From: Thermoproteota archaeon
Lineage (GTDB): Archaea > Asgardarchaeota > Jordiarchaeia > Jordiarchaeales > Freyrarchaeaceae
DNA length: 12,661 nucleotides
Assembly (NCBI GenBank): GCA_029258835.1
Contig: JAPDJY010000063.1
Coordinates: 1 to 12,661, forward strand
Direction of reading: 5' to 3'
Of this stretch, positions 1-12,661 are shown one piece after another (the first letter of the stretch is position 1; each line of letters opens with the position of its first letter). The notes under the pieces were generated by a model that saw only the letters and a list, made by a program, of their open reading frames with translations, searched no databases and was not told the DNA's origin. The position numbers and the translations under genes were made by a program.

Positions 1-1
1 G

Positions 2-217
2 TGGAAGGGAAGGAAAGGATGGGACTCCCTCATTTTAAAAGAGCTTGCGATATCGAGGATAGATAAACTAATCAAAAGCTCTGAGCTTTCTCTTAGAAAA
101 GTTTCTATCCATGGAGCTAGCCTTGTCATGGATTTCGATGTGATCGCAACGTGTAGCTACAGTTCAACTCTGTGCGAGGTCTTCAAGGTAGCCAAGAAGG
201 AGGGCAAGAGGTTCAGG
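2..217 (+). other. Segment of an aIF-2B/eIF-2B alpha/beta/delta family protein, fused in frame to the downstream intein
   Basis: The translation ...ELSLRKVSIHGASLVMDFDVIATCSYSSTLCEVFKVAKKEGKRFR resembles the recalled family pattern 'iGA.LI.dgDvI.ThS.SStv.evl..A...gk.F.V'. The expected continuation V.vtEsrP is missing. GC is about 43% (hand count, 1-180), against about 57% at 241-360. Confidence 0.75.
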
Positions 218-2335
218 TTAGGAGAGGTCACGCACCTCTGGAGGTACGAGCTGAATGAGGAAGACGCCTACACGATCGTAACGTCGGATGGCAACAGGCT
301 GGTGACGAGTTCATGGCATCCGTTCTTGGTCTTCGAGGGCGGGGAGGTCGTCGAGAAGAGAGCTGAGGAGCTGAAGAGAGGCGACCTGCTTATAGCGCCG
401 GATGGCTCGATCCTTAAGGATTGGCCCTTTAACGAATATCAAAAGATCGGTGGCCACTTACTCGACGAGGAATTCGGGAGGCGTTTGGGCCTCGCTTTGG
501 GAGGGGCTGGCGGATTGGCCACGGATGGGGGGCTCGTGGAGGTCGGCAGGGTCCCCGAAGCGATCTCGAAGTCCCCTCCGGGCGTGATCCTGGCCTTCCT
601 ATCCGGGTTGGCGGAGGCCAGGGGCTCTTTGAGGGATGGCAAGGCCACCTTAAATTTGGAGGACGAGGAGCTTGCTAAGGACCTATCGTCCTTGGCATCA
701 CTCTTGGGGTTAAGGGTGAGGGTAAGGGGGAGATACACGCTGACCTTCGAACTTCCTAGGAGGCTCGACGATTTACCCGACGGGCCCCATCTGGTCGAGG
801 TGGAGAGGGTAGAGAGAGGTGGCGGGACCACCTTCTACGATCTGACGGTGAGTGGGGGGAGCAACTACCTAGCGGGAGAATTCGGCCTGGCCGTGATCCA
901 CAACACCGGGTTCGACTTCTCGAAGCTGAGGCCGAAGGGCGACTACGTAAGCACGACGGGGGGCTCGGCATCGGGCCCGGTCACCTTCATGAGGATATTC
1001 GACGAATCGACCAACGTGATAAAGCAGGGAGGGAGGAGGAGGGGTGCGAACATGGGGGTCCTGAGGGTGGATCACCCCGACATAATCGACTTCATAACCG
1101 CCAAGTCGAAGGAGGGCTACCTGGACAACTTCAACCTATCGGTAGCGGTCACCGACGAGTTCATGAAAGCCGTTAAGGACGACGACAAATACCCCCTGAT
1201 AAACCCCAGGAACGGCGAGGTCGTGAAGGAGCTGAGGGCGAGGGACGTGTTCGACCTAATCGCGTTCATGGCTTGGAAGGTGGGCGATCCCGGCCTCCTC
1301 TTCATAGACGAGATAAACAGGCACAACCCGATCTTGGGGACCAGGATAGAGGCGACGAATCCGTGCGGGGAGCAACCCCTGCTCCCCTACGAATCATGCA
1401 ACCTAGGCTCGATAAACGTCTCGAAGTTCGTCCTAGAAGGCGACCTGGACTGGGAGAGGCTGAGGGAGACGGTCAGGCTCGCCGTCAGGTTCCTGGACAA
1501 CGTCATAGATGCCAACAGGTTCCCCCTGAAGATCATAGAAAAGGTTACGAAGTCGAACCGAAAGATAGGGCTCGGGGTCATGGGCTTCGCTGAGGCTCTG
1601 GCGAAGCTGGGGGTCCCTTACGACTCCGAAGAGGGGCTGAGGTGGGCGGAGAGGATCATGGGGTTCATAGAGAGGGAAGGCCATAAGGCGTCTCAAGAGC
1701 TTGGGGAGCTGAAGGGCTCCTTCCCGAACTTCCACAGGAGCGTGTGGAAGAGGAAGGGCTACAAGGCCATGAGGAACGCAACGGTAACTACGATAGCCCC
1801 GACCGGCACCATAAGCATAATAGCCGACTGCTCCTCCGGGATAGAGCCCTTCTTCTCGATAGCCTACGTCAGGAACGTGCTCGAAGGCGCTAGGCTGATC
1901 GAAGTGAACAAGGTATTCGAGGAGTATGCGAAGAAGCACGGTTTCTACTCCAGCAGGCTCATCATGGAGATAGCGAAGACCGGCAGCGTCCAGGGGTTGA
2001 AGGAGGTTCCAGATCGGATAAAGAGGATATTCAGGAACGCGCTCGAGATAGAGCCGGAGTGGCACGTGAGGATGCAGGCGGCCTTCCAGAAGTACGTTGA
2101 CAACGCCGTGTCTAAAACGGTTAACTTGCCGCATGAGGCGACACTTGAGGATGTCAGGGAGGTTTTCACCATGGCCCACCGGCTGAAGTGTAAGGGGATA
2201 ACCGTTTACCGCTACGGAAGCAAGAGGGAGCAAGTGCTCTATCTTGGGGTTACCCCCGGAGCTGAGGAGGAAAAGTACGTTGTAGCAGAATCGGAGTACT
2301 CTGGTGGGTGCCCGGCAGGAGTCTGCGTGTTTTAG
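2..2335 (+). CDS. nrdJ: Class II adenosylcobalamin-dependent ribonucleotide reductase, C-terminal portion (905-2335), preceded in frame by a partial intein and a non-RNR N-terminal segment; the frame is open to the window edge
   Basis: Motifs seen: TGFDFSKLRPKGD, SGPVTFM, QGGRRRGANM, ATNPCGEQPLL (thiyl-radical Cys), ESCNLGSIN, TIAPTGTISIIADCSSGIEP, AVSKTVNLP, KGITVYR and a C-terminal CPAGVC Cys pair. Manual translation shows no stop from base 2 to the ATG at 128. The RNR N-terminal region is absent. Confidence 0.9.
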   Translation, partial: WKGRKGWDSLILKELAISRIDKLIKSSELSLRKVSIHGASLVMDFDVIATCSYSSTLCEVFKVAKKEGKRFRLGEVTHLWRYELNEEDAYTIVTSDGNRLVTSSWHPFLVFEGGEVVEKRAEELKRGDLLIAPDGSILKDWPFNEYQKIGGHLLDEEFGRRLGLALGGAGGLATDGGLVEVGRVPEAISKSPPGVILAFLSGLAEARGSLRDGKATLNLEDEELAKDLSSLASLLGLRVRVRGRYTLTFELPRRLDDLPDGPHLVEVERVERGGGTTFYDLTVSGGSNYLAGEFGLAVIHNTGFDFSKLRPKGDYVSTTGGSASGPVTFMRIFDESTNVIKQGGRRRGANMGVLRVDHPDIIDFITAKSKEGYLDNFNLSVAVTDEFMKAVKDDDKYPLINPRNGEVVKELRARDVFDLIAFMAWKVGDPGLLFIDEINRHNPILGTRIEATNPCGEQPLLPYESCNLGSINVSKFVLEGDLDWERLRETVRLAVRFLDNVIDANRFPLKIIEKVTKSNRKIGLGVMGFAEALAKLGVPYDSEEGLRWAERIMGFIEREGHKASQELGELKGSFPNFHRSVWKRKGYKAMRNATVTTIAPTGTISIIADCSSGIEPFFSIAYVRNVLEGARLIEVNKVFEEYAKKHGFYSSRLIMEIAKTGSVQGLKEVPDRIKRIFRNALEIEPEWHVRMQAAFQKYVDNAVSKTVNLPHEATLEDVREVFTMAHRLKCKGITVYRYGSKREQVLYLGVTPGAEEEKYVVAESEYSGGCPAGVCVF
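218..904 (+). mobile_element. Intein lacking its N-terminal block A, with a degenerate LAGLIDADG endonuclease remnant, at the RNR GGG|TG insertion site
   Basis: Block B TSSWHPF (TxxH, 305-319); KRAEELKRGDLL; block F TFYDLTVSGGSNYLA; block G VIHN followed by Thr+1 (TGFDFS). LAGLIDADG-like relics LGLALGGAGG (485-514) and AFLSGLAEARG (593-625). Confidence 0.9.
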
Positions 2336-2347
2336 AGGTGTAACCCG

Positions 2348-2872
2348 TTGGCCAGGTGCTTCATCCACCTTTACACCGGAGAAGGGGAGGGGAAAACGCT
2401 AACTGCCATTGGAGCAGCCATTAGAGCCATAGGGCATGGACTCAGGGTAGTGGTCATCCAGTTCATGAAGGGGAGGAAGAAGGTTGGGGAGTACATGGTT
2501 AGGGAGAAGCTCAAGCCAGACTATGAAATATACCAGTTCGGCCGGGAGGAGTTCATAGACCTCGGTAACCCTCACCCTGTGGACTACAAGCTCGCAAAGG
2601 AAGGTTTAGAGTTCGCCCGCAGGATCTTAAGGAGGAAGAAGCCGGACGTGTTAATTCTAGACGAGGTAAACCTAGCTGTAGCCGTAGGGTTGCTTAGGGT
2701 TGAGGACGTACTTCAACTTTTAGATGAGGCGGAGGGGTGCTCCCTCATTATTCTAACGGGGAGAAGGGCTCCAAAGGAGCTGATTGAGAGAGCAGACTTG
2801 GTGACTGAGATGTGTGAGGTGAAGCATCCGCTGAGAACCGGCGTAAGCGCCAGGAAGGGAATAGACTACTAG
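2348..2872 (+). CDS. cobO: ATP:cob(I)alamin / cob(I)yrinate a,c-diamide adenosyltransferase (CobA/CobO/BtuR family)
   Basis: IHLYTGEGEGKT P-loop, RAIGHG, VIQFMKG, VLILDEVN, IILTGRRAP, ADLVTEM..VKHP, ARKGIDY. TTG start with an RBS-like GAGGTG at 2335-2340, 12 bp after the RNR stop. Confidence 0.95.
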   Translation: MARCFIHLYTGEGEGKTLTAIGAAIRAIGHGLRVVVIQFMKGRKKVGEYMVREKLKPDYEIYQFGREEFIDLGNPHPVDYKLAKEGLEFARRILRRKKPDVLILDEVNLAVAVGLLRVEDVLQLLDEAEGCSLIILTGRRAPKELIERADLVTEMCEVKHPLRTGVSARKGIDY

Positions 2873-3023
2873 CAAACGTCGAAGCTTGAGACCCCTAGGG
2901 GAAGAAGGATTTAAACGTGCCCGATGATGAGGCTCGTCCATTTCCCCTTTAGATAAATGAAAAATAAAATATGTGAGAGGTCCATGATATTGTTTTAGTG
3001 CTTACGCTCTGGAGGATTTTCTG

Positions 3024-3539
3024 ATGGGTGGCGGAGGCGTAAAGAACAGGAAAGAGTTGTTGAGGAGGTTCTTTAATAGCGTGAAGGAGGATGTAGACTT
3101 GTACAGGGTGAAGGAGCGGATAGCATTCTACCTTAAGCTTATGGATTTAAATTTTAAGTGGTCTGACGAGCATAACGCTTTCCTTGTCCCATACGAGATC
3201 TCAGGGCACACGCACATAGTCGTGGTAAGCTGGTCAGATATGTGGGTTGTGATCAGAACGGGCATAATGACTAAAGATGAAGTCCCTTCTAGGTATAGGG
3301 AGGAACTCTACAAAAAGCTTCTTCAAGCAAATCATGACTATTACGAATTTGCGTATGATATGGATGATGAAGGAAACATTGGGATAAGCGAAGACATATT
3401 CATTCCCGCACTCACGTTCGATGTGTTCTGGGAGGAGTTCAACGTCATACCCTTAGCGATAAAATACTTCTGGGAGACGATAATTCCAAGCCTAGGAGAG
3501 GCAAGAAAACCTGGGAGAACAGACTGGATATACGTTTAA
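3024..3539 (+). CDS. YbjN-like (type III secretion chaperone-fold) protein
   Basis: Pattern of helix, three strands, 'ELYKKLLQAN', 'AYDMDDEGNIGISEDI', then a C-terminal amphipathic helix, typical of YbjN/CesT-like domains. GGAGG lies upstream of the ATG. Confidence 0.7.
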   Translation: MGGGGVKNRKELLRRFFNSVKEDVDLYRVKERIAFYLKLMDLNFKWSDEHNAFLVPYEISGHTHIVVVSWSDMWVVIRTGIMTKDEVPSRYREELYKKLLQANHDYYEFAYDMDDEGNIGISEDIFIPALTFDVFWEEFNVIPLAIKYFWETIIPSLGEARKPGRTDWIYV

Positions 3540-3992
3540 CCCTCTGCTGGCTAAGCGGGTGCGCTTAGAGAGTTAACTGGGTTGAGGGTGGGTAATCGAC
3601 GCCGACGTCGGCACCAGCAGATTATGGCTTAATTGATGAGGGGTGGTTAAAGGTGAAGCTAAGCGATGATGGATGCGAAATCACCTTATGCCAAGGGGGC
3701 GGAGTACGGGTTATTCGGGGAATCCTGCTGGACAGGCTAACCCGGCGAGGTTAACCTATAAGCAAGAGCAAGTAGATGTCAAAAGTAGTTTCCCCCATGA
3801 AGGTCTGTGGAAACGTTGAAAAACAACTGTTCAGTCGGCACATTTTTACTTTTCCGTTTTCTCTCCTCTAAAACCTTCTAACTTTTTCAGGCTGCTCTAA
3901 GGAAGATTTTGGAGTGGAGGGAAGATAAGGTTCTGTTAACCAAAAAAATAAGTATGAGAAAGTGGTTTGTTTATCCGGTTGGAGGAGGGAGA

Positions 3993-5657
3993 ATGAGCGA
4001 GAGACCTTGGTTTAAGTTTTGGCCTAAGGCTTTGAGCCGTGGGCTTGACTGTCCTCGAGTCCCCTTGTACGACTTGGTTGAGACCTCCGCCAAGCGGTTC
4101 CCCGACAAGGACGCCATAATATATTATGGGACAAGGATTAAGTATGATGAGCTGTGGGGTGACGTCGAGAACTTTGCGGGGTTGCTGAGCGACCTTGGGG
4201 TTGAGAAGGGGGAGCGCGTGGCGCTCTTCGACGCGAACTCGCCTCAATGGGTTATAGCCTACTTTGGAACCTTGCGTGCGAACGCCGTAAGCGTCCCCAT
4301 AAACCCTCTCCTGAAAGCCGACGAGTTAAGGTACATACTCAATGATAGCGGGGCGAAGGTTATCGCGACGTCGTTGCCGTTTGTCTTCACGGTGGCTGAG
4401 GCGGTTAAGGACACGCAGGTGGAGAAGATAATAGTGTATAAGCACAGGGATTACATCCCAGCCGAGCCGGAGATACCAGCCCCAGACTTCCTAATGCTGG
4501 ACGCCAAGATACCAGACACGATGGTCGACTGGGGCAAGGCCATGAGCGAGGAACACTCCCCTCCGGAGGAGAAGAGTAAACACGAGGACCTCGCAATGAT
4601 CGTTTACACTTCAGGAACCACGGGGGTCCCTAAGGGGTGCATGCACCCTCACAGGACGGTCTACTTTAACGCTATAGCCTCGTCATACTGGTTTAGGACC
4701 ACAACGCAGGGAGTGAACTTGGCGGTGTTGCCGTACTTCCACGTAACCGGCCTCCAGCACTCGTTGAACGCCGCCCTCTACGCTGGGGGAACAGTTGTCC
4801 TTTTCACCAGGTGGGATAGGAGGGCGGCGCTTCAAGCAATCGAGAAGTACAGGTGCACTCACTGGGTTAGCATAGCCACGATGGTCGTAGACTTCATCAA
4901 TGACCCTGAAGTGACCAAGTTCGACCTTTCATCGCTGATCGTCGCCGGCGGGGGAGGAGCACCGATGCCTCAGGCGGTAGCTGAAAGGTTCCGTGAGCTG
5001 ACAGGGATAACATACGCTGAAGGTTACGGTTTAACGGAGACGATCTCTCAGACGCACCTGAACCCCCTCGAGAGGCCCAAGCTCCAATGCCTTGGAATTC
5101 CAGAGTTTAACACAGACTCCCTCGTAGTGGACCTTGAAACCGGAGACGTCCTCGCCCCCGGCGAGACAGGGGAGATCGTGGTTAAGGGGCCTCAAGTATT
5201 CCTAGGATACTGGAATAAGCCTAAGGAAACGGAGGAGGCGTTCATCGAGATCGACGGCGAAAAATACTTTAGAACAGGCGACGTCGGATACATGGATGAA
5301 GAAGGATACTTCTTCATGGTGGACAGGGTTAAGAGGATGATAAACAGGGCTGGATTCAAGGTTTGGCCTACCGAAGTGGAAAACATAATGTATGGCCACC
5401 CTGCGATAAAGGAGATCTGCATCGTGGGGGTGCCTGACGAGAGGGTTGTGGAGGAGGTTAAAGCGTACGTCGTACTTAAACCCGAGTACGAGGGCAAAGT
5501 TAAGCCGGAGGAGATCATTGAATGGGCTAAGGGAAAGATGGCTGCATACAAGTACCCGCGAATAGTGGAGTTCGTCAGCGACCTGCCTAAGAGCGCAACG
5601 GGGAAAGTCCTCTGGAGAGAGCTTCAAGAAAAGGAGAGGGCTGGAAAAGCAGGGTGA
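3993..5657 (+). CDS. fadD: Long-chain-fatty-acid--CoA ligase (ANL/AMP-binding family)
   Basis: YTSGTTGVPKG, AEGYGLTET, YFRTGDVG, DRVKRMINRAGFKVWPTEVE, LPKSATGKVLW. I prefer the ATG at 3993 (MSERPWFKFWP; GGAGG at 3981-3985) over the track's TTG at 3909. Confidence 0.93.
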   Translation: MSERPWFKFWPKALSRGLDCPRVPLYDLVETSAKRFPDKDAIIYYGTRIKYDELWGDVENFAGLLSDLGVEKGERVALFDANSPQWVIAYFGTLRANAVSVPINPLLKADELRYILNDSGAKVIATSLPFVFTVAEAVKDTQVEKIIVYKHRDYIPAEPEIPAPDFLMLDAKIPDTMVDWGKAMSEEHSPPEEKSKHEDLAMIVYTSGTTGVPKGCMHPHRTVYFNAIASSYWFRTTTQGVNLAVLPYFHVTGLQHSLNAALYAGGTVVLFTRWDRRAALQAIEKYRCTHWVSIATMVVDFINDPEVTKFDLSSLIVAGGGGAPMPQAVAERFRELTGITYAEGYGLTETISQTHLNPLERPKLQCLGIPEFNTDSLVVDLETGDVLAPGETGEIVVKGPQVFLGYWNKPKETEEAFIEIDGEKYFRTGDVGYMDEEGYFFMVDRVKRMINRAGFKVWPTEVENIMYGHPAIKEICIVGVPDERVVEEVKAYVVLKPEYEGKVKPEEIIEWAKGKMAAYKYPRIVEFVSDLPKSATGKVLWRELQEKERAGKAG

Positions 5658-5684
5658 CACAATCACAACCACTTAAACCTGCAC

Positions 5685-5712
5685 TTTTTCTCTTTATTTT
5701 CTACATTTTTCT
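5685..5712 (+). terminator. Probable archaeal oligo-T terminator after the acyl-CoA ligase
   Basis: Pyrimidine/T-tracts (tttttctctttattttctacatttttct) starting about 28 bp after the stop codon. Confidence 0.5.
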
Positions 5713-6412
5713 CTTATCTGCGCGTCCTGCTTGCTCTATAGGATGCTTTGCCGGTTGATTCCCCAATTTTCGTTAATTAGTTTGTTATTGTTTTAACTGA
5801 TTATTTTTAGATGGCTCTCCATCTAATTTTCTATTTTTCGAAAGCGTTTTCATTTTTTGGCTTATTTCTTGAAGGCAAATGGTAATACCGTAGTAAGGAC
5901 GAATTACCGCCATCAAACTCCCTGAACAGCTTCCATGCTTCCAGCCCTAACAACAAGAATAAGGCTGAGGGAGGAGGCTGCTTAAGACGAATACAAACGC
6001 TAAAGAGATGTCAGAAGGGGGTCTTACCGCATCCTTTAAGGAACACGCTTCCCTTGCCTTCCTGTTCTGGGAAGTATTTTTTTCTCTTGCCTTGTCATGG
6101 CCCAACCTCATTCCCGCTTGAACGTTGCCGCTCTCGCCGGGACGCTTTTGGACGGGTGATTTGAATTTGCTATGCGAGCATAATTTGCTACGCGGGTATG
6201 ATTGAGGTGATATTTGAGGGTTTTTTCGGTGATACATTTCATACTTGGTTTTCGAGTACAGGGTTTCCGTGGAGTGTCTGGAGGGAGCATTATGGTACCC
6301 GATATCCGTGTATGAGGGGGTTTTAGCGTGGGGAATCCCGCTTCTTTACTCCAATTTTGTTGGGTTAGAGATATATACTTGAAAGGCGTGTGATGGTACT
6401 CGGTGTTTGAGT

Positions 6413-6754
6413 ATGCCCATGCTTAGGGTGGTTAGGAGGCCCACGCTTATAGACCCACGCCACTTCTTGCAGTACTGTTTTAGAACCGAGGAGCAGGTTC
6501 GCCAGGCGAGGAAGATCCTTAGCGAGATAGCTAGGAGGGGTTCTGTTCCCGACAGGGAGTGGGAGTGCTTTCTGGTTTCCAGCAGGGGGCTTTACACTAA
6601 GGTTATGAGGACCTTGAGGGAGTTTGGCTTGGTTGAGAAGAGGGAGGGACACTTCACTCTTAGCAGGGAGTTCTCGGCTAGCCTCAGAAGGATGGCTGAC
6701 TACTGGGATGGTGTTTATGAAAGCGTCAAGAGGGGGGAGCCGGTCGAGTTTTGA
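6413..6754 (+). CDS. Small winged-helix-like, probably DNA-binding, hypothetical protein
   Basis: SRGLYTKVMRTLREFGLVEKREGHFTLSREF fits a recognition helix plus wing (L...GLV....yxLS). ATG at 6413 (the track uses TTG 6407). AT-rich TATA-like gatatatac at about 6370-6378. Confidence 0.7.
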   Translation: MPMLRVVRRPTLIDPRHFLQYCFRTEEQVRQARKILSEIARRGSVPDREWECFLVSSRGLYTKVMRTLREFGLVEKREGHFTLSREFSASLRRMADYWDGVYESVKRGEPVEF

Positions 6755-6883
6755 TTCCTTCAAGTGCCTTCAAGGTGATACCTCCATTACCTTTCAATGC
6801 CTTCGAAAAATAGAACGCGTTTCTTGAAAAATGAAAAATGAAGGTTGATGGCAGATGCATCCTTGGTTTAAAAAGTAAACTGA

Positions 6884-8437
6884 CTATGGGCCCCCACCAT
6901 CATGGCCATCGGGCAGGTCGCCGAGGGATAGCGTAGGGTCCTCTATGACGTCGATCCTACTATACCGTTTAGCCGTGAAGAGCAGGAATATGGAGCATGA
7001 GGCTACGGTGGCGGAGAGGAGCAGGTAGCCACTACCATCACCTGAACTAGAAGGCAGACTATAGGATAGGATGCTTAATGTGAGGATTAACGGGAGGACG
7101 TGGGTGCCGTGTTCATCCGGCTCCGCGCCAGGATTACCCGGCATTACCGGCTCCGTTGAGGTTACCCTGTAGTTGAGGGTTGTTGAGGCTTTGTTCCCCG
7201 CTTCGTCCCATGCAGTAACCTCTACCTCGTATTCCCCTTCGAATGGGGGTGCTTTTATGATGCCTACCCATACTCCGTCGTTTTCCGTGAGGAGGACGTT
7301 GTTCGCGTAGACTCCTGTTACTTCTGTCTCGTCAACCACCATGACCGTTACCTTCACCGGCCCCCCTGGATTTACGCTGGTGGCGTTTAGGGAGGCGTTG
7401 ACCCTTGGGGGGGTGGCGTCCACGTACAGGTATCTTTCTAGGATGTACTCTTTTCCGTTGCCCACCGCACGTAGTGTAACGGTGTGGTTTCCTTGGGTTT
7501 GAGGCGCCGTGAAAACAGCTTCCCACGAGCATTCACCTGTTTTCGTCATGTTGATGCTGTTCACCAAAACGTAGTTCACGGTTCCCTGTGTTTGAACGGT
7601 AACTTTTATGGCGTCTTGAGGCTTCACGACTGAGGTGTTAAACTGGACACCTGTTATAACTGGATCGCTTGGCTGTGGGGGTTTGTAAACGTAAACCGTA
7701 AAGTTTACCTCGGATGGTGTGTGGGTTTCGTTCCCAGAGTATTTAGCCGTCAAGTTATGGTATCCAAGCTGGGTGCTGCCCGGGATTATGAAGCTGAGGG
7801 TTGCAGTCCCGCTCTCGTCTGTCGGGCCGCTGGAGAGGAGGGTGCCGGAGTCGTCGTAAAGGCTTAGAGTAACTCCTGCCATTCCATTTCCCAAGTTGTC
7901 CTCTAAGTGGAATGTTGCATTGTACATGGCTGAGGGGGTTACGTTCTCCGGGTGGGAAACCACCTCCAGCCTCGTCTCGGAAACTATTCTAACGTCGAAG
8001 AAGGCTGGGTTGGCTGTGTAGTCCGGGTCAGGTGTTAGGTCGTCCTTGACCGGTGTCGCATTTATCACGCGCTCCCCCAAGTCGTAGTCGTCTGGGACGA
8101 GCCACCTGAAATTAGCGTAGCCTGAATCATTGGAGACGAGCACGGTGATAGGCTGATTAAGCTTTTCATCGTAAAAGCAAACGAGCTTGCCGGAAGCCGG
8201 AGCACCTTGCCCGTCGATGACTTGGGTGACCAAGGTCAGCTCGGAGCCCCTGCTGGCAACGATCACTTCCCCGTGCGGCTCAGCCACACCCAACCTTGAC
8301 TTTGAAGCGTACAGTGCTAGCAGATTCGAGTTTGAGCGGTTGCTGAAGCTAGCTTCTACGGTTACCAGAGAAACCACCAGTATAAGTGCTATGATAAGTG
8401 CTATGAGGGAAAACTTCCAGAGCCTCAAGGAAAGCAC
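6884..8437 (-). CDS. Secreted, C-terminally membrane-anchored protein with four Ig-like beta-sandwich domains
   Basis: N-terminal hydrophobic signal segment ending VEA-S; two Big-like repeats (D.qG.p..G..v.fYD...t(n/d).sG.A); two further repeats (P...ikVTV...W.....AP...G.(h/y).v...A); Pro-rich linkers; many N-x-S/T sequons; C-terminal hydrophobic helices followed by KR. Confidence 0.85.
   Translation of the reverse strand: MLSLRLWKFSLIALIIALILVVSLVTVEASFSNRSNSNLLALYASKSRLGVAEPHGEVIVASRGSELTLVTQVIDGQGAPASGKLVCFYDEKLNQPITVLVSNDSGYANFRWLVPDDYDLGERVINATPVKDDLTPDPDYTANPAFFDVRIVSETRLEVVSHPENVTPSAMYNATFHLEDNLGNGMAGVTLSLYDDSGTLLSSGPTDESGTATLSFIIPGSTQLGYHNLTAKYSGNETHTPSEVNFTVYVYKPPQPSDPVITGVQFNTSVVKPQDAIKVTVQTQGTVNYVLVNSINMTKTGECSWEAVFTAPQTQGNHTVTLRAVGNGKEYILERYLYVDATPPRVNASLNATSVNPGGPVKVTVMVVDETEVTGVYANNVLLTENDGVWVGIIKAPPFEGEYEVEVTAWDEAGNKASTTLNYRVTSTEPVMPGNPGAEPDEHGTHVLPLILTLSILSYSLPSSSGDGSGYLLLSATVASCSIFLLFTAKRYSRIDVIEDPTLSLGDLPDGHDGGGP
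8382..8405. repeat. Perfect 12-bp tandem duplication ATAAGTGCTATG x2 in the signal-peptide coding region
   Basis: Read directly from the sequence; encodes the repeated IALI-IALI on the minus strand. Confidence 0.85.
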
Positions 8438-8462
8438 CTAAACACAATAGCTTCACGAAGCA

Positions 8463-8469
8463 ATTTATA
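8463..8469 (-). promoter_or_regulatory. TATA-box candidate (TATAAAT) for the Ig-like gene, implying a leaderless or very short-leader transcript
   Basis: Ends 26 nt upstream of the GTG start at 8437, matching archaeal TATA spacing. The BRE is poor. Confidence 0.45.
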
Positions 8470-8639
8470 CCCAACATTGCAGTAGGCTGCCCTCTGATGC
8501 TCTCCCCGGCTTTTTAACTACTTGAAAAGGGCTCGGGAAGTATAGTAGGATTAGGAGGAGAATGCACAATGCCTTTTGTAGATGACACGTGGAAAACACG
8601 TAGTTCTTGGAAAAAACATTGAGCCATGAAGAGTTTATT

Positions 8640-8654
8640 GAAAAATTTTATTAA
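8640..8654 (+). promoter_or_regulatory. BRE/TATA candidate (gaaaaaattttatta) for the 8721 gene
   Basis: A-rich BRE-like stretch followed by TTTATTA, about 70 nt upstream of the start. RBS AGGAGG at 8707-8712. Confidence 0.4.
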
Positions 8655-8720
8655 CCTGATCGAATCCGAAGGAGATTAAGCCTTTAAAGTGGTTGGTAGG
8701 GTTTAAAGGAGGATTGCTGG

Positions 8721-9056
8721 TTGAACATCGAGAAGCTCCCGGAACTAGTCGAGGTAAACGTGGGAAACTGGAGGGTTGAGGCAGTATACATCATCGACAA
8801 CAACTTTAAGATCTGGGCGTCCAAGGGACCTATAAAAGGGGAAGTCCTAAACTATTACAGGAAGTTTCCCATAGCAGAATTAGAAGTGGGAGATGTGATC
8901 CACAATAGAAACAGCTTCCTCCTAAAAGTAACCGAGAAGACGGGAGTAATAGTGGTCACACCGGAACCATACTACTCGCTCATAGCCGCGGCAAACCTTA
9001 AAGGAAGAATAAACGCTCTCAACGAACTCTACAAGCTAGACCAGCTCATCAAATAA
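8721..9056 (+). CDS. Hypothetical 111-aa protein, possibly profilin/roadblock/longin-like alpha-beta fold
   Basis: TTG start with a strong AGGAGG RBS. VEAVYIIDNNFKIWASKG beta-hairpin, a further three-strand meander (SFLLKVTEKTGVIVVT) and a C-terminal helix. The CDS looks real; the fold is an inference. Confidence 0.65.
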   Translation: MNIEKLPELVEVNVGNWRVEAVYIIDNNFKIWASKGPIKGEVLNYYRKFPIAELEVGDVIHNRNSFLLKVTEKTGVIVVTPEPYYSLIAAANLKGRINALNELYKLDQLIK

Positions 9057-9154
9057 TAGGGAAGGAAGATAAGCTGTTTGGAGGAGGCCCTCAAGACTGC
9101 CGGCTTAACCGACACCACCCTACCGGAGAAAAACTACTTTTAGACAAGGCAGAA

Positions 9155-9162
9155 TTTAAATA
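9155..9162 (+). promoter_or_regulatory. TATA-box candidate (TTTAAATA) for thiI-larE
   Basis: Consensus-like TTTAWATA preceded by the purine-rich ggcagaa, about 47 nt upstream of the ATG at 9209. Confidence 0.5.
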
Positions 9163-9208
9163 TCTCCGCACACCACCTTATTTGTGATCGTTAATTGCAG
9201 GGGAAAAG

Positions 9209-10396
9209 ATGCGAGGATACGAAGGAAACTATGACGCGGTCATCGTTAGGTTTGGGTGCGAGGTAGGCGTTAAAAGCCCTAGAACGCGGGTACGCTACGA
9301 GAGAGAGGTTTGCAGGCAGGTAGGGGAGACTCTAAAAGAGGCAGAGATAAAACACGAAATAGAGCACGTGTTCGGGAGAGCATACATAAAAACCGACGCA
9401 GCCGTTGAAGCGGCGAAGCTAGCGTCACGTGTTTTCGGCGTCTCTTCAACGTCCCCAGCCGTTAAAACAAGCTCGAAGATGGAGGACATAATAAACTCGG
9501 CTCTAAAGGTTGCGGGTGAAGCCTTAAAGGGGAAGAGGTCGTTCGCCGTCAGGTGCAGAAGAGCCGGAAGCCACCCCTACACGAGTATGGACGTCTGCAG
9601 AGAGGTTGGAAGAGCAGTCCTCCAGCACCTCAGGGGGGAAAAGTTAAAGGTAGACTTGAAGGATCCTGAGGTAACCTTAAACATTGAAGTAAGAGACGGG
9701 TATGCATACATCTACACGAGAGAGTTTGAGGGGCCAGGGGGCTTCCCCATCGGAACCCAAGGGAAGGTTGTGTGCCTGCTGAGCGGCGGGATCGACTCCC
9801 CAGTAGCATGCTGGCTCATGATGAGAAGGGGGGCACTCATAACACCAGTATACTTCGACTCGAGCCCAACATTCTCCGACGAAGCCGACAGGACGAAAGC
9901 ACTGGACTGTGCACGAGTCCTCTTCGACTGGGCAGGGAGGAAGGGGAAAATGTACATTGTCCCCCACGAGGAAGCACTGGCAGCCATAAGGGAAGGAGCC
10001 CCTGAAAAGTACACCTGCATCCTCTGCAAGAGGTTCATGTACCAGGTGGCGGAGAGGATAGCCGACTTGGAGGGGGCGGAGGGAATAGTAACTGGGGAGG
10101 CGGTGGGGGAGCAGGCGAGCCAAACCCTCAGAAACCTGAGGGTTCTAAGCGAAGCCGCCAGGAAGTATCCGGTTCATAGGCCACTCCTCGGCTTCGACAA
10201 GGTCGAAACAGAAGCCCTAGCGAGGAAGATAGGCACATACGACATCTCGATTAGGAAGAGTAGAGGGTGTACGGCTTCCCCGAAACACCCTGTTCTCAAA
10301 GCGAAGATGGACGTCGTCTTAGAGCTCGAGGAGCAGGTGGGAGTAGGGAAGCTGGTAGAGGAAGCCTTAAGCGGAATGGAGAAGGTGGAGGTTTAA
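9209..10396 (+). CDS. thiI: tRNA 4-thiouridine(8) synthase ThiI, archaeal type without a rhodanese domain
   Basis: N-terminal VRFG.EVGVKS, THUMP domain (SFAVRCRRAG, KVDLKDPE), GPGGFPIG, PP-loop LLSGGIDSPVA, TGEAVGEQASQTL.NL, RPLLGFDK, and CILC plus a C-terminal GC. Confidence 0.96.
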   Translation: MRGYEGNYDAVIVRFGCEVGVKSPRTRVRYEREVCRQVGETLKEAEIKHEIEHVFGRAYIKTDAAVEAAKLASRVFGVSSTSPAVKTSSKMEDIINSALKVAGEALKGKRSFAVRCRRAGSHPYTSMDVCREVGRAVLQHLRGEKLKVDLKDPEVTLNIEVRDGYAYIYTREFEGPGGFPIGTQGKVVCLLSGGIDSPVACWLMMRRGALITPVYFDSSPTFSDEADRTKALDCARVLFDWAGRKGKMYIVPHEEALAAIREGAPEKYTCILCKRFMYQVAERIADLEGAEGIVTGEAVGEQASQTLRNLRVLSEAARKYPVHRPLLGFDKVETEALARKIGTYDISIRKSRGCTASPKHPVLKAKMDVVLELEEQVGVGKLVEEALSGMEKVEV

Positions 10397-10403
10397 AGAG
10401 GGG

Positions 10404-11201
10404 ATGATTGATAAGAGGACTGAAAGTAAGGTTGACATGGTTCTGAGAGAGCTGAGGGGGAGGGGAAGGGTGGCAGTCGCCCTTTCGGGAGGGGTTGACA
10501 GCTCAACGCTCACAGCCCTAGCGTTTAAAGCCCTTGGAGAGAACGCCATAGCCGTAACCATAAAGTCCCCCCTCACCATTCCAGAGGAAGCCGCCATGGC
10601 GAGGAAGGTGGCTAAGCTGATAGGGGTGAAGCACATAGTTATTCCTTTTAACGAATTAGAGATACCCGGGTTCGACGAGAACCCGCCTGAAAGATGCTAC
10701 CTCTGCAAGAAGAGGCGCAGCCAACTCCTCAAAAAGGAGGTGGGGGGGTACGTGATAGCCGACGGGACAACGGCCGACGACCTAAAGGATTACAGGCCAG
10801 GAATAAGGGCCCTAAAGGAAGAGGGGGTTTGGAGTCCACTCTTAGAGGCAAAACTCACTAAGAAGGAAGTCAGGATGATAGCGGAAGAGCTTGGACTGCC
10901 AAACAGCGATGCACCTCCGAACAGCTGCCTAGCCACAAGGTTCCCTCACGGAGAAAAGCTCACCCCTCAGAAGCTAAGCAAAGTGGCGGAGGCGGAAAGA
11001 GTGGTGAGGGAGACGCTCAGCGTCAGGCTGGTAAGAGTTAGAGTCCATGGCCAGCTAGCCAGGATAGAAGTAGGAGAAGACGAGCTGGAGAAGGCGCTAA
11101 ACAAGCAGAAGCTAAGGGAAGCCGCCGTGAAAATAAGGAAACTAGGATACAGGTTTGCGACACTAGACCTAGAGGGGTATAAACCAGGAAAACACGTCTA
11201 A
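10404..11201 (+). CDS. larE: LarE-family ATP-dependent sulfur transferase (PP-loop)
   Basis: VAVALSGGVDS, NPPERCYLCK, DGTTADDLKDYRPG, SPLLEA..TK.EVR, SCLATRFPHG, VRVRVHG.LARIEV, LDLEGY. Starts 7 bp after the thiI stop. Confidence 0.93.
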   Translation: MIDKRTESKVDMVLRELRGRGRVAVALSGGVDSSTLTALAFKALGENAIAVTIKSPLTIPEEAAMARKVAKLIGVKHIVIPFNELEIPGFDENPPERCYLCKKRRSQLLKKEVGGYVIADGTTADDLKDYRPGIRALKEEGVWSPLLEAKLTKKEVRMIAEELGLPNSDAPPNSCLATRFPHGEKLTPQKLSKVAEAERVVRETLSVRLVRVRVHGQLARIEVGEDELEKALNKQKLREAAVKIRKLGYRFATLDLEGYKPGKHV

Positions 11202-11614
11202 AAAACCGGCAACCACCTACCACCAGCCACCACCAAACCCACATATTCAAAAATTTTCCCCACGACTTTTTAACGGTTCTAAACGAGGTCTCCCCGGTTC
11301 AACCCATGAAAACGTTTAAAGTTCCCCCTCTGAAACCCCGCTCCACCACCGGCAATCTTGCTTAAAAAAGCATTAAGGAGGATGTTATTTGGCGGAGCCC
11401 ACACTTGGGAAGACAATGGAAGGTTAAACCCGAATAGGGAAGAAGGTAGGTGGAACTTCACCCGTTCACCTGAAAAACCATCAATGAACCCTAAGACGGA
11501 AAAACCCACACGAAAACAGCGAAAGCCACTAAAGGAACGGGAACCAAGGCACCATCAGCCCACACACCTAAAAATAAATTCTTTTACAGTACCCTCAAGA
11601 AACAATGCTACAAT

Positions 11615-11630
11615 AACAAAAAAGAAAAAT
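11615..11630 (-). terminator. Probable oligo-T terminator for the minus-strand surface-protein gene
   Basis: aacaaaaaagaaaaat on the + strand, i.e. T-tracts 13-28 nt after the stop on the minus strand. Confidence 0.5.
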
Positions 11631-11642
11631 TAAGATTAGCTT

Positions 11643-12659
11643 TCACTGTTCATCTGCTTCCCGGTCCTGCTCCTCCTCTGAGCCACCCTCCGGCTTCTCT
11701 TCAGCCTCTCTCCCCGCTTCACTCCCCTCTTCCTTTTCCTCCTCCTTCTCTTCTACTTTCTCCTTCAGCAGCCGCTCCTCTTCTTCTTTTTCTAGTTCTT
11801 GGAGTATTGTTGCTGATATGTCTGGTGGGACTCCTACTGTTTCTAGTAGTTTTTCTCTTTCTGCTGGGGTTGAGGCTCTGAGCTCCGCCAGGATGGCGTG
11901 AGCCTCGCCCTCGCTCTTACCTATCTCGACGAGGAGTGGGACGAGCCTGTCAGCAACCTCCGGGGGCACGTACCTCACAGCCCTGGGCTCAACCCCAACC
12001 AGCGCGAGCTCCTCCCTCAGGAGCTGCTCTATGACCGAGTCCCTGGTGAGGGGCTTGCCCGCCTCGACCGGCATCCCCTTACTTATCCTCTCAATCAGGT
12101 AGTCTATCCTCCTGATTATCGGAGGAATCCTAGCCCTCTGCACGTAAACGTAAGAGGCGAATGCTGAGGCAGGTACCAGTACGCTCACGAGAATTGCAGC
12201 GAACACTCTGTAGGGAACGTTCACCAAGGGTATGGTCCACTCGTTTACCTTAAGGAGGACGACCGTCGAAGCCGTCTGGTAGTATGTTTTCTGCGCTTGG
12301 ACTGTTAGTGGTAGCGCTGAGTCTGGCATGCCCGAAACCGGGATTATTGTAAAGTAGAGTCCAGATCCTAACTCCCATACTGGTAAGCCGAGCATGGTTA
12401 AGTTTGCCCCCGTTACAGGTCTTCCATAGTCGTCTTTAATGGTAAATAACAGTGGTACAAATGGAACATTGTTCTCCACCATAGTGTAAGGTCCCACTAT
12501 GAATTTGTTGGATAGTGGCAGTATTACCGTGGTTATAGTGGTGGGTATAGACAAGACGGACAAGGCCATTTTCACGTTTTGATGCTGGTAGTTCTGCTTT
12601 ACCACGTAGAAGGTTATGAGGTAGGTTCCGGGTTCTAGTATGGTCTCACTGAGATTCAG
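11643..12659 (-). CDS. 3' part of a large single-pass membrane protein: Ig-like repeats, TM helix, helical cytoplasmic domain and acidic tail (5' end outside the window)
   Basis: The frame stays open past the track's start at 12605 to the edge (LNLSETILEPGTYLITFYVVKQNYQ). Repeated K..Yq......L.V strand motif; TM segment VFAAILVSVLVPASAFASYVYV followed by the basic QRARIPPIIRRID; Glu/Lys-rich C-terminus. Confidence 0.88.
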   Translation of the reverse strand: MNLSETILEPGTYLITFYVVKQNYQHQNVKMALSVLSIPTTITTVILPLSNKFIVGPYTMVENNVPFVPLLFTIKDDYGRPVTGANLTMLGLPVWELGSGLYFTIIPVSGMPDSALPLTVQAQKTYYQTASTVVLLKVNEWTIPLVNVPYRVFAAILVSVLVPASAFASYVYVQRARIPPIIRRIDYLIERISKGMPVEAGKPLTRDSVIEQLLREELALVGVEPRAVRYVPPEVADRLVPLLVEIGKSEGEAHAILAELRASTPAEREKLLETVGVPPDISATILQELEKEEEERLLKEKVEEKEEEKEEGSEAGREAEEKPEGGSEEEQDREADEQ

Positions 12660-12661
12660 GC

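Follow-up and report, generated by a model that had tools for sequence, protein, structure and literature searches.

We propose that the reading frame at the start of this contig, which passes from an IF-2B-family protein through an intein into a ribonucleotide reductase (RNR), is almost certainly the result of DNA wrongly joined at one end of a metagenome contig, and not a real gene. Judging from sequence comparison, bases 1-2092 appear to be an artefactual overhang contributed by two other organisms of the same sample, with both joins being artefacts, a reading to which we assign a probability of about 88%. The joins would have been made by the assembler or in a chimeric library molecule, and not in the cell. 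For the first of them, which links the IF-2B piece to the intein, we hold an artefactual origin to be probable in the highest degree. The window, by which we mean the whole stretch of DNA analysed, is the entire 12,661-base contig C57, one of the 91 contigs of a metagenome-assembled genome (MAG; G000) that is 94.7% complete with 6.0% estimated contamination. Its features are listed here; P0007 and L025 are an intein-bearing RNR and the contig that carries it.

1..196, + strand: foreign piece 1, the interior of an IF-2B-family gene (codons ~84-147 of 317) from Thermoproteota (B8_G17-like, Guaymas Basin); DNA match and Pfam
197..217, + strand: crossover 1, at the word AAGGAGGGCAAGAGGTTCAGG, reading KEG(K/R)RFR; three-way nucleotide alignment
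218..904, + strand: foreign piece 2a, the last 229 residues of an RNR intein of 288 aa, with a degenerate LAGLIDADG region; PF14890 and P0007 alignment
905..2092, + strand: foreign piece 2b, the RNR C-extein (class II, barrel) of a P0007/L025-type donor, GC 0.58; identity to L025
2044..2092, + strand: crossover 2 zone, a strongly conserved part of the RNR gene (...EPEWHVRMQAAFQK...) in which the L025-type allele gives way to the native one; sliding identity
2093..2335, + strand: native DNA, the 3' end of the intein-less RNR gene that belongs to this genome; relatives' identity and collinearity with G001
2348..2872, + strand: native neighbour, ATP:corrinoid adenosyltransferase (CobA/BtuR); Pfam PF02572, E=9e-55

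Domain content of the fused frame

On the + strand a stop-free frame extends from base 2 to a stop at 2333-2335, reading in order through an IF-2B fragment, an intein without its first 52 residues and a class II RNR. The original prediction had described this single open frame and had proposed a profile scan of its first two parts, and the Pfam matches bear the description out. The translation of 2-217 is recognized as IF-2B (PF01008) over residues 13-72, with E=2.5e-7 and a score of 30.6 bits against a cut-off of 22.4 bits. The match covers profile positions 75-134 of 280 only, not the whole domain, and the IF-2B stretch in the window is a fragment, not a gene. The translation of 218-904 is recognized as Intein_splicing (PF14890, E=6e-17), again over part of the profile only (positions 38-155 of 155), and contains weak LAGLIDADG matches; the RNR barrel domain follows the intein (PF02867, E=1.8e-129). 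Since the PF14890 match begins at profile position 38, the splicing domain is without its N-terminal part, block A included. Block B (TSSWH, 305-319), the C-terminal HN (899-904) and Thr+1 (905-907) are all present, and the intein thus carries the TxxH of block B, the terminal HN and the +1 Cys, Ser or Thr on which cis-splicing depends. The window contains no N-extein, Cys1 or block A, and with these is missing the N-terminal nucleophile (Cys1 or Ser1) that cis-splicing requires in block A right after the N-extein. The earlier claim that an N-extein ending in GGG and a Cys1 block A are absent is therefore upheld by the profile, and also by the comparison with P0007 below.

The base composition changes along the frame. 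GC climbs from 0.41-0.42 (1-180) to 0.55-0.58 (181-420), the rise across the join that had been noted before. By segment, GC is 0.439 in 1-196, 0.581 in 197-2092 and 0.507 in 2093-12661; L025 has a GC of 0.57, and C56, the contig that carries a second RNR of the same MAG, has 0.505, equal to the native part of C57 (~0.51). The three levels of 0.44, 0.58 and 0.51 agree with three sources.

Intact parents of the two foreign pieces

Where does the IF-2B piece come from? A protein search with the 72-residue fragment retrieved P0002, a 317-aa member of the IF-2B family that NCBI lists as a hypothetical protein from a Thermoproteota archaeon MAG; the identity is 100% over 99% of the query, and in P0002 the piece occupies residues 84-155, in the interior of the protein. 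The gene lies on L024, a 5.9 kb contig (JGI Ga0180302_10006136 = QMVU01000083.1; L027 and L028 are the same contig) of isolate B8_G17 from Guaymas. Window bases 3-217 differ from L024 only at bases 10 and 31 (99% identical DNA), and from L026, a contig of an independent metagenome (Ga0116200_10026345), at base 10 as the sole mismatch. In both L024 and L026 the gene is intact beyond the position of the join (...KEGKRFR-VLVSESRS...). A different identity for 2-217, that of a diverged intein N-terminus, on which the chimera claim of the original prediction would have foundered, is ruled out: the DNA is near-identical to a full-length IF-2B gene, and Pfam likewise assigns it to IF-2B. The rest of the donor contig has no DNA match in G000, and the donor's other genes reach at best 25-43% amino acid identity there, as against 99% for the IF-2B piece. 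Two IF-2B-family genes, both complete, are already present in G000 on C3 and C4, and a search for the fragment in 40 relatives gave at most 38% identity.

The intein and the RNR that follows it have another parent. A protein search with the intein region retrieved P0007 (JGI Ga0072682_111853), a 988-aa protein with 97% identity in that region, which comprises an ATP-cone, the RNR N-terminal domain, an intein and the barrel. Its intein is complete, with 288 residues (225-512) in the context ...HKTGGG/Cys225...His-Asn512/Thr-Gly-Phe, where slashes mark the borders. In BLASTP, window residues 66-777 align to P0007 277-988 with 94% amino acid identity, and the intein part shows few substitutions. 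Nothing in the window corresponds to the first 52 residues of the P0007 intein, Cys225 among them, and P0007 retains exactly those parts that the window intein is without, GGG/Cys1. Window 197-2092 and L025 share 98.2% of nucleotides (34 mismatches); with same-family relatives of the MAG (G001-G003), the same stretch shares only ~50-78% amino acid identity. Set beside P0007-type class II (adenosylcobalamin) RNRs with an intein at GGG/T(G/F), the window has the same insertion site, HN/Thr and block B, but it differs in that the N-extein is missing along with the first 52 residues of the intein, and in its last ~80 codons, which belong to another RNR allele. The rest of L025 finds no DNA match in G000; its neighbour genes reach at best 37-46% amino acid identity in G000 and are not syntenic, compared with 94% for the RNR itself. 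In the MAG of the IF-2B donor (G041, B8_G17), neither RNR nor any L025 DNA was matched, which is weak evidence against a single genome as the source of both parents.

The native RNR is accounted for by two contigs

What, then, is the RNR of this genome? The second RNR in G000, at the 3' end of C56, is free of an intein (...HKSGGG-TGFSFS...); the contig breaks off 568 residues into it. It is 71-100% identical to same-family relatives per 50-column block, and clearly less so to P0007. The relative G001 has a single RNR locus, on a 1.1-Mb contig, and both contigs of G000 are collinear with it: C56 10539-13905 corresponds to L029 7757-10712, and C57 2100-10312 to L029 10870-15789. In tblastx, C57 2336-2872 matches L029 11102-11638 at 74%, so that CobA/BtuR follows the RNR in G001 too. 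Because the one locus of G001 is flanked by the genes of C56 and of C57, these two contigs are adjacent and form the two flanks of one locus, between which ~150 nt of the native RNR gene are absent. By this comparison the RNR of G000 itself is intein-less and split between C56 and C57. Since the native gene is accounted for by C56 together with C57 from 2093 onwards, bases 1-2092 of C57 are left as a foreign overhang, which duplicates, as a different allele, a region that C56 already covers. Two RNR paralogues on C56 and C57 were also considered and are ruled out, the single locus of the relatives having flanks that match both contigs.

The native locus also bears on a speculative alternative in the original prediction, a naturally split RNR in which the C-intein and C-extein seen here are trans-spliced to an N-extein and N-intein encoded elsewhere. 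Naturally split inteins exist, cyanobacterial DnaE being an example. The window resembles them in that the C-terminal part of an intein is fused to its C-extein, and blocks B, F and G, the HN and Thr+1 are retained. Unlike them, it has no partner gene, no translation start of its own and a non-canonical break in the N-terminal splicing lobe, which falls 52 residues into the intein, ahead of block B, and not at the endonuclease loop. At the break there is neither a start codon nor an intergenic region, and the sequence upstream is the interior of another organism's gene. The genome search that had been suggested for an RNR N-terminal half ending in GGG-C found, by tblastn, only the intein-less gene of C56: P0007 residues 1-290 match the C56 N-extein alone, at 60%, and there GGG/TGFSFS leads straight into the barrel. 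PF14890 occurs in G000 only on C57, an absence that is not absolute in a MAG 94.7% complete. With no N-intein and no GGG-Cys N-extein gene in G000, and with the break where it is, we regard a split RNR as scarcely credible.

The first switch

A three-way nucleotide alignment places the first switch of source in the word AAGGAGGGCA(A/G)GAGGTTCAGG, which both parents have in common at 197-217. The window matches the IF-2B parent at 21/21 positions of this word and L025 at 20/21, with G and not A at 207, and mismatches at 196 and 218 delimit it. To the left of the word the window tracks the IF-2B gene only, and to the right the intein only. The junction near 209-217 that had been described as fitting either parent lies inside this word. 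With the nearest RNR-intein relative standing in for the true parent in the sample, the exact shared word could be as little as 10 nt long, and at most 21 nt as far as the alignment shows. Its frame is the same in both parents, KEGKRFR at P0002 148 and KEGRRFR at P0007 277, and the fusion stays in frame only because both genes read the word alike, as these seven residues. The join is located 217 bases from the contig end.

Could this join exist in a cell? Foreign DNA might have been taken up, and illegitimate recombination at a microhomology might then have joined the IF-2B gene to the intein and left a non-splicing fusion pseudogene. The 10-21 nt of microhomology and the preserved frame are what such an event could produce, and an in-frame ATG at 128 would open an ORF of 735 aa. 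The join, however, unites distant lineages, each donor being 98-99% identical to its piece, and it sits exactly at a contig end, where the foreign gene stops after ~200 bases. The product would be without Cys1, block A and N-extein and could neither splice nor reduce ribonucleotides, and the native RNR locus is explained by C56 and C57 without any fusion. No fused protein occurs among the protein-search matches for the fragment and for the intein region; a scan of metagenome and genome contigs for the junction pattern gave no match either, at low power, as the L025 record itself was also missed. We therefore consider a real join very unlikely. The original prediction had paired misassembly with a real microhomology-mediated deletion in one genome. 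Misassembly is sustained by the intact parents and the shared word. A deletion within a single genome is rejected, since the parents are distant organisms, their neighbour genes are absent from G000 (best 25-46% amino acid identity) and the native RNR is intein-less.

The second switch

Beyond the single junction of the original prediction, we found a second switch of source at ~2044-2092. Per 30-nt window, C57 is 97-100% identical to L025 up to 2073, and the next mismatch is at 2093; beyond 2104 the identity to L025 is 43-77% in DNA and 44-65% in protein. Over the same zone the identity of C57 to the family relatives L011, L015 and L016 moves the other way, from 43-57% (1984-2043) to 73-90%. 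In the last 100 alignment columns the RNR tail of C57 is 81-89% identical in amino acids to G001-G003, against 44-65% to P0007; upstream of the switch, identity to these relatives stays in the low range of ~50-78% given above.

A switch in such a conserved stretch may also come about by homologous recombination, and only the first join would then be an artefact. In one strain of this archaeon most of the RNR gene would have been replaced by a distant intein-bearing allele, through homologous recombination or homing with co-conversion, and C56 would represent a co-occurring strain that is intein-less. Co-conversion of the adjoining extein sequence is a known effect of intein homing, and same-order relatives carry an intein at the same RNR site. 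A donor identity of 98%, compared with 37-46% for the donor's other genes, would nevertheless demand a very recent transfer between lineages. The tract would extend ~1.2 kb 3' of the intein, and the return to a native N-extein expected on the 5' side is absent; instead the path enters the gene of a third organism, and then the contig ends. Two switches between organisms less than 2.1 kb from a contig end are more simply attributed to one cause. We consider this replacement improbable, albeit the least improbable of the readings that we weigh against the artefact. In a more far-reaching version, the archaeon would have acquired DNA of two distant lineages living alongside it, and recombination at microhomologies would have brought this DNA into the RNR locus and created the in-frame fusion of IF-2B, half-intein and RNR; this seems to us highly improbable, on a par with a real first join. 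If true, it would give a glimpse of illegitimate recombination between phyla or of allele replacement driven by intein homing.

A model for the chimeric contig tip

Based on these observations, we favour an artefactual origin of both joins and propose the following course of events. The native contig would start at ~2093, within the 3' part of the intein-less RNR gene of this genome, whose 5' part lies at the 3' end of C56. Read backwards, the assembly path would have moved at ~2044-2092 onto the distant intein-bearing allele of the L025/P0007 type and would have stayed on it until it was inside the intein, 1.9 kb further on. There a chance match of up to 21 nt (197-217) may have let it move a second time, to the interior of an IF-2B-family gene from a Thermoproteota archaeon, and it would have stopped after ~200 bases of that gene. 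Three sources, two switches at a shared word or conserved stretch less than 2.1 kb from the contig end and intact parents are together the signature of a contig that is chimeric between genomes: the sides of the joins match different organisms that hold the genes intact, the word shared at the first is short, and both lie near a contig end. C56, the true neighbour, also breaks off inside the same RNR locus.

Chimeric contigs that arise from k-mers common to different genomes have been described as one way in which de Bruijn metagenome assemblers fail (PMC7299287). C57 is like these in joining several organisms in one contig, in switching at shared words or conserved stretches, in its position at the contig tip and in having intact parents. 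It is unlike the typical cases in that two successive switches bring together three organisms within 2.1 kb, and in that the first switch keeps the frame and mimics a fusion protein. The IF-2B parent comes from Guaymas assemblies made with MEGAHIT at a smallest k of 23 (PMC6258724). If the present MAG comes from a MEGAHIT pipeline with k of at least 23, a 21-nt word alone would provide no link in the graph; the word would then have to be longer in some unseen strain variant, or the join would stem from a chimeric library molecule. The join is an artefact in either case.

Implications for the MAG and its annotation

What are the consequences for users of this genome? Bases 1-2092 of C57 should be trimmed from the MAG, and any protein deposited as 'RNR' from C57 is a three-source chimera. 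The real, intein-less RNR can be rebuilt by joining C56 to C57 at 2093, with ~150 nt still missing. There is neither an IF-2B/intein fusion protein nor a split RNR, and the fusion has no biological significance. More generally, in-frame 'fusions' at contig tips should be compared with intact parents before they are interpreted.

The neighbourhood of the native gene and the distribution of the intein among relatives merit a brief remark. An adenosyltransferase of the CobA/BtuR type next to the RNR gene fits an enzyme that depends on adenosylcobalamin (B12). As a separate observation, alignments that run from the intein C-terminus into the extein place an intein at the same RNR site in the same-order relatives G005-G009, G012, G016 and G033.

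The native ribonucleotide reductase and its neighbours

The genome's own class II ribonucleotide reductase (RNR) carries no intein and is broken over two contigs, C56, whose 3' end lies inside the locus, and the contig of the window (C57). About 150 nt of the gene are absent between them, and the two contigs can be assigned the order and orientation C56(+) to C57(+). The two parts of the gene and the genes that follow it are:

C56 12202-13906, + strand: native RNR, 5' part, first 568 residues
window 2093-2335, + strand: native RNR, 3' part, last ~80 residues
window 2348-2872, + strand: ATP:corrinoid adenosyltransferase (CobA/BtuR)
window 3024-3539, + strand: 171-aa ORF matching Pfam CesT_Tir_1 (PF22550)

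The B12-dependent RNR is followed immediately by the adenosyltransferase gene, a sensible functional pairing, and the same gene order is also kept in G001, a relative of the same family. The PF22550 match of the 171-aa ORF (E=1.2e-7) scores 32.2 bits against a Pfam cut-off of 27; an archaeon would not be expected to carry a member of CesT_Tir_1, whose proteins resemble type III secretion chaperones.

Intein distribution and the donor-type contig

At the GGG|T site of the RNR an intein is present in several relatives of the same order and of the same phylum, including L013 (in genome G005), L009 (G012) and L017 (G009); the site is without intein in same-family relatives and in C56. Such patchy occurrence among relatives is typical of a mobile intein.

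L025, the donor-type contig with the intact intein-bearing RNR, has in addition a gene for a topoisomerase IB of eukaryotic type (Topoisom_I_N, Topoisom_I). Downstream of the RNR, ~4.6 kb away, it carries genes of portal-, HK97-capsid- and connector-like type, possibly a provirus:

L025 5944-7533 and 8914-11800: regions noted for topoisomerase IB and portal/capsid/connector-like genes

The contig tip

Window bases 2 and 10 mismatch both available IF-2B parent contigs (L024, QMVU01000083.1, and L026), and base 31 mismatches one of the two. These differences within window 1-31 reflect either variation between strains or errors at the very tip of the contig.
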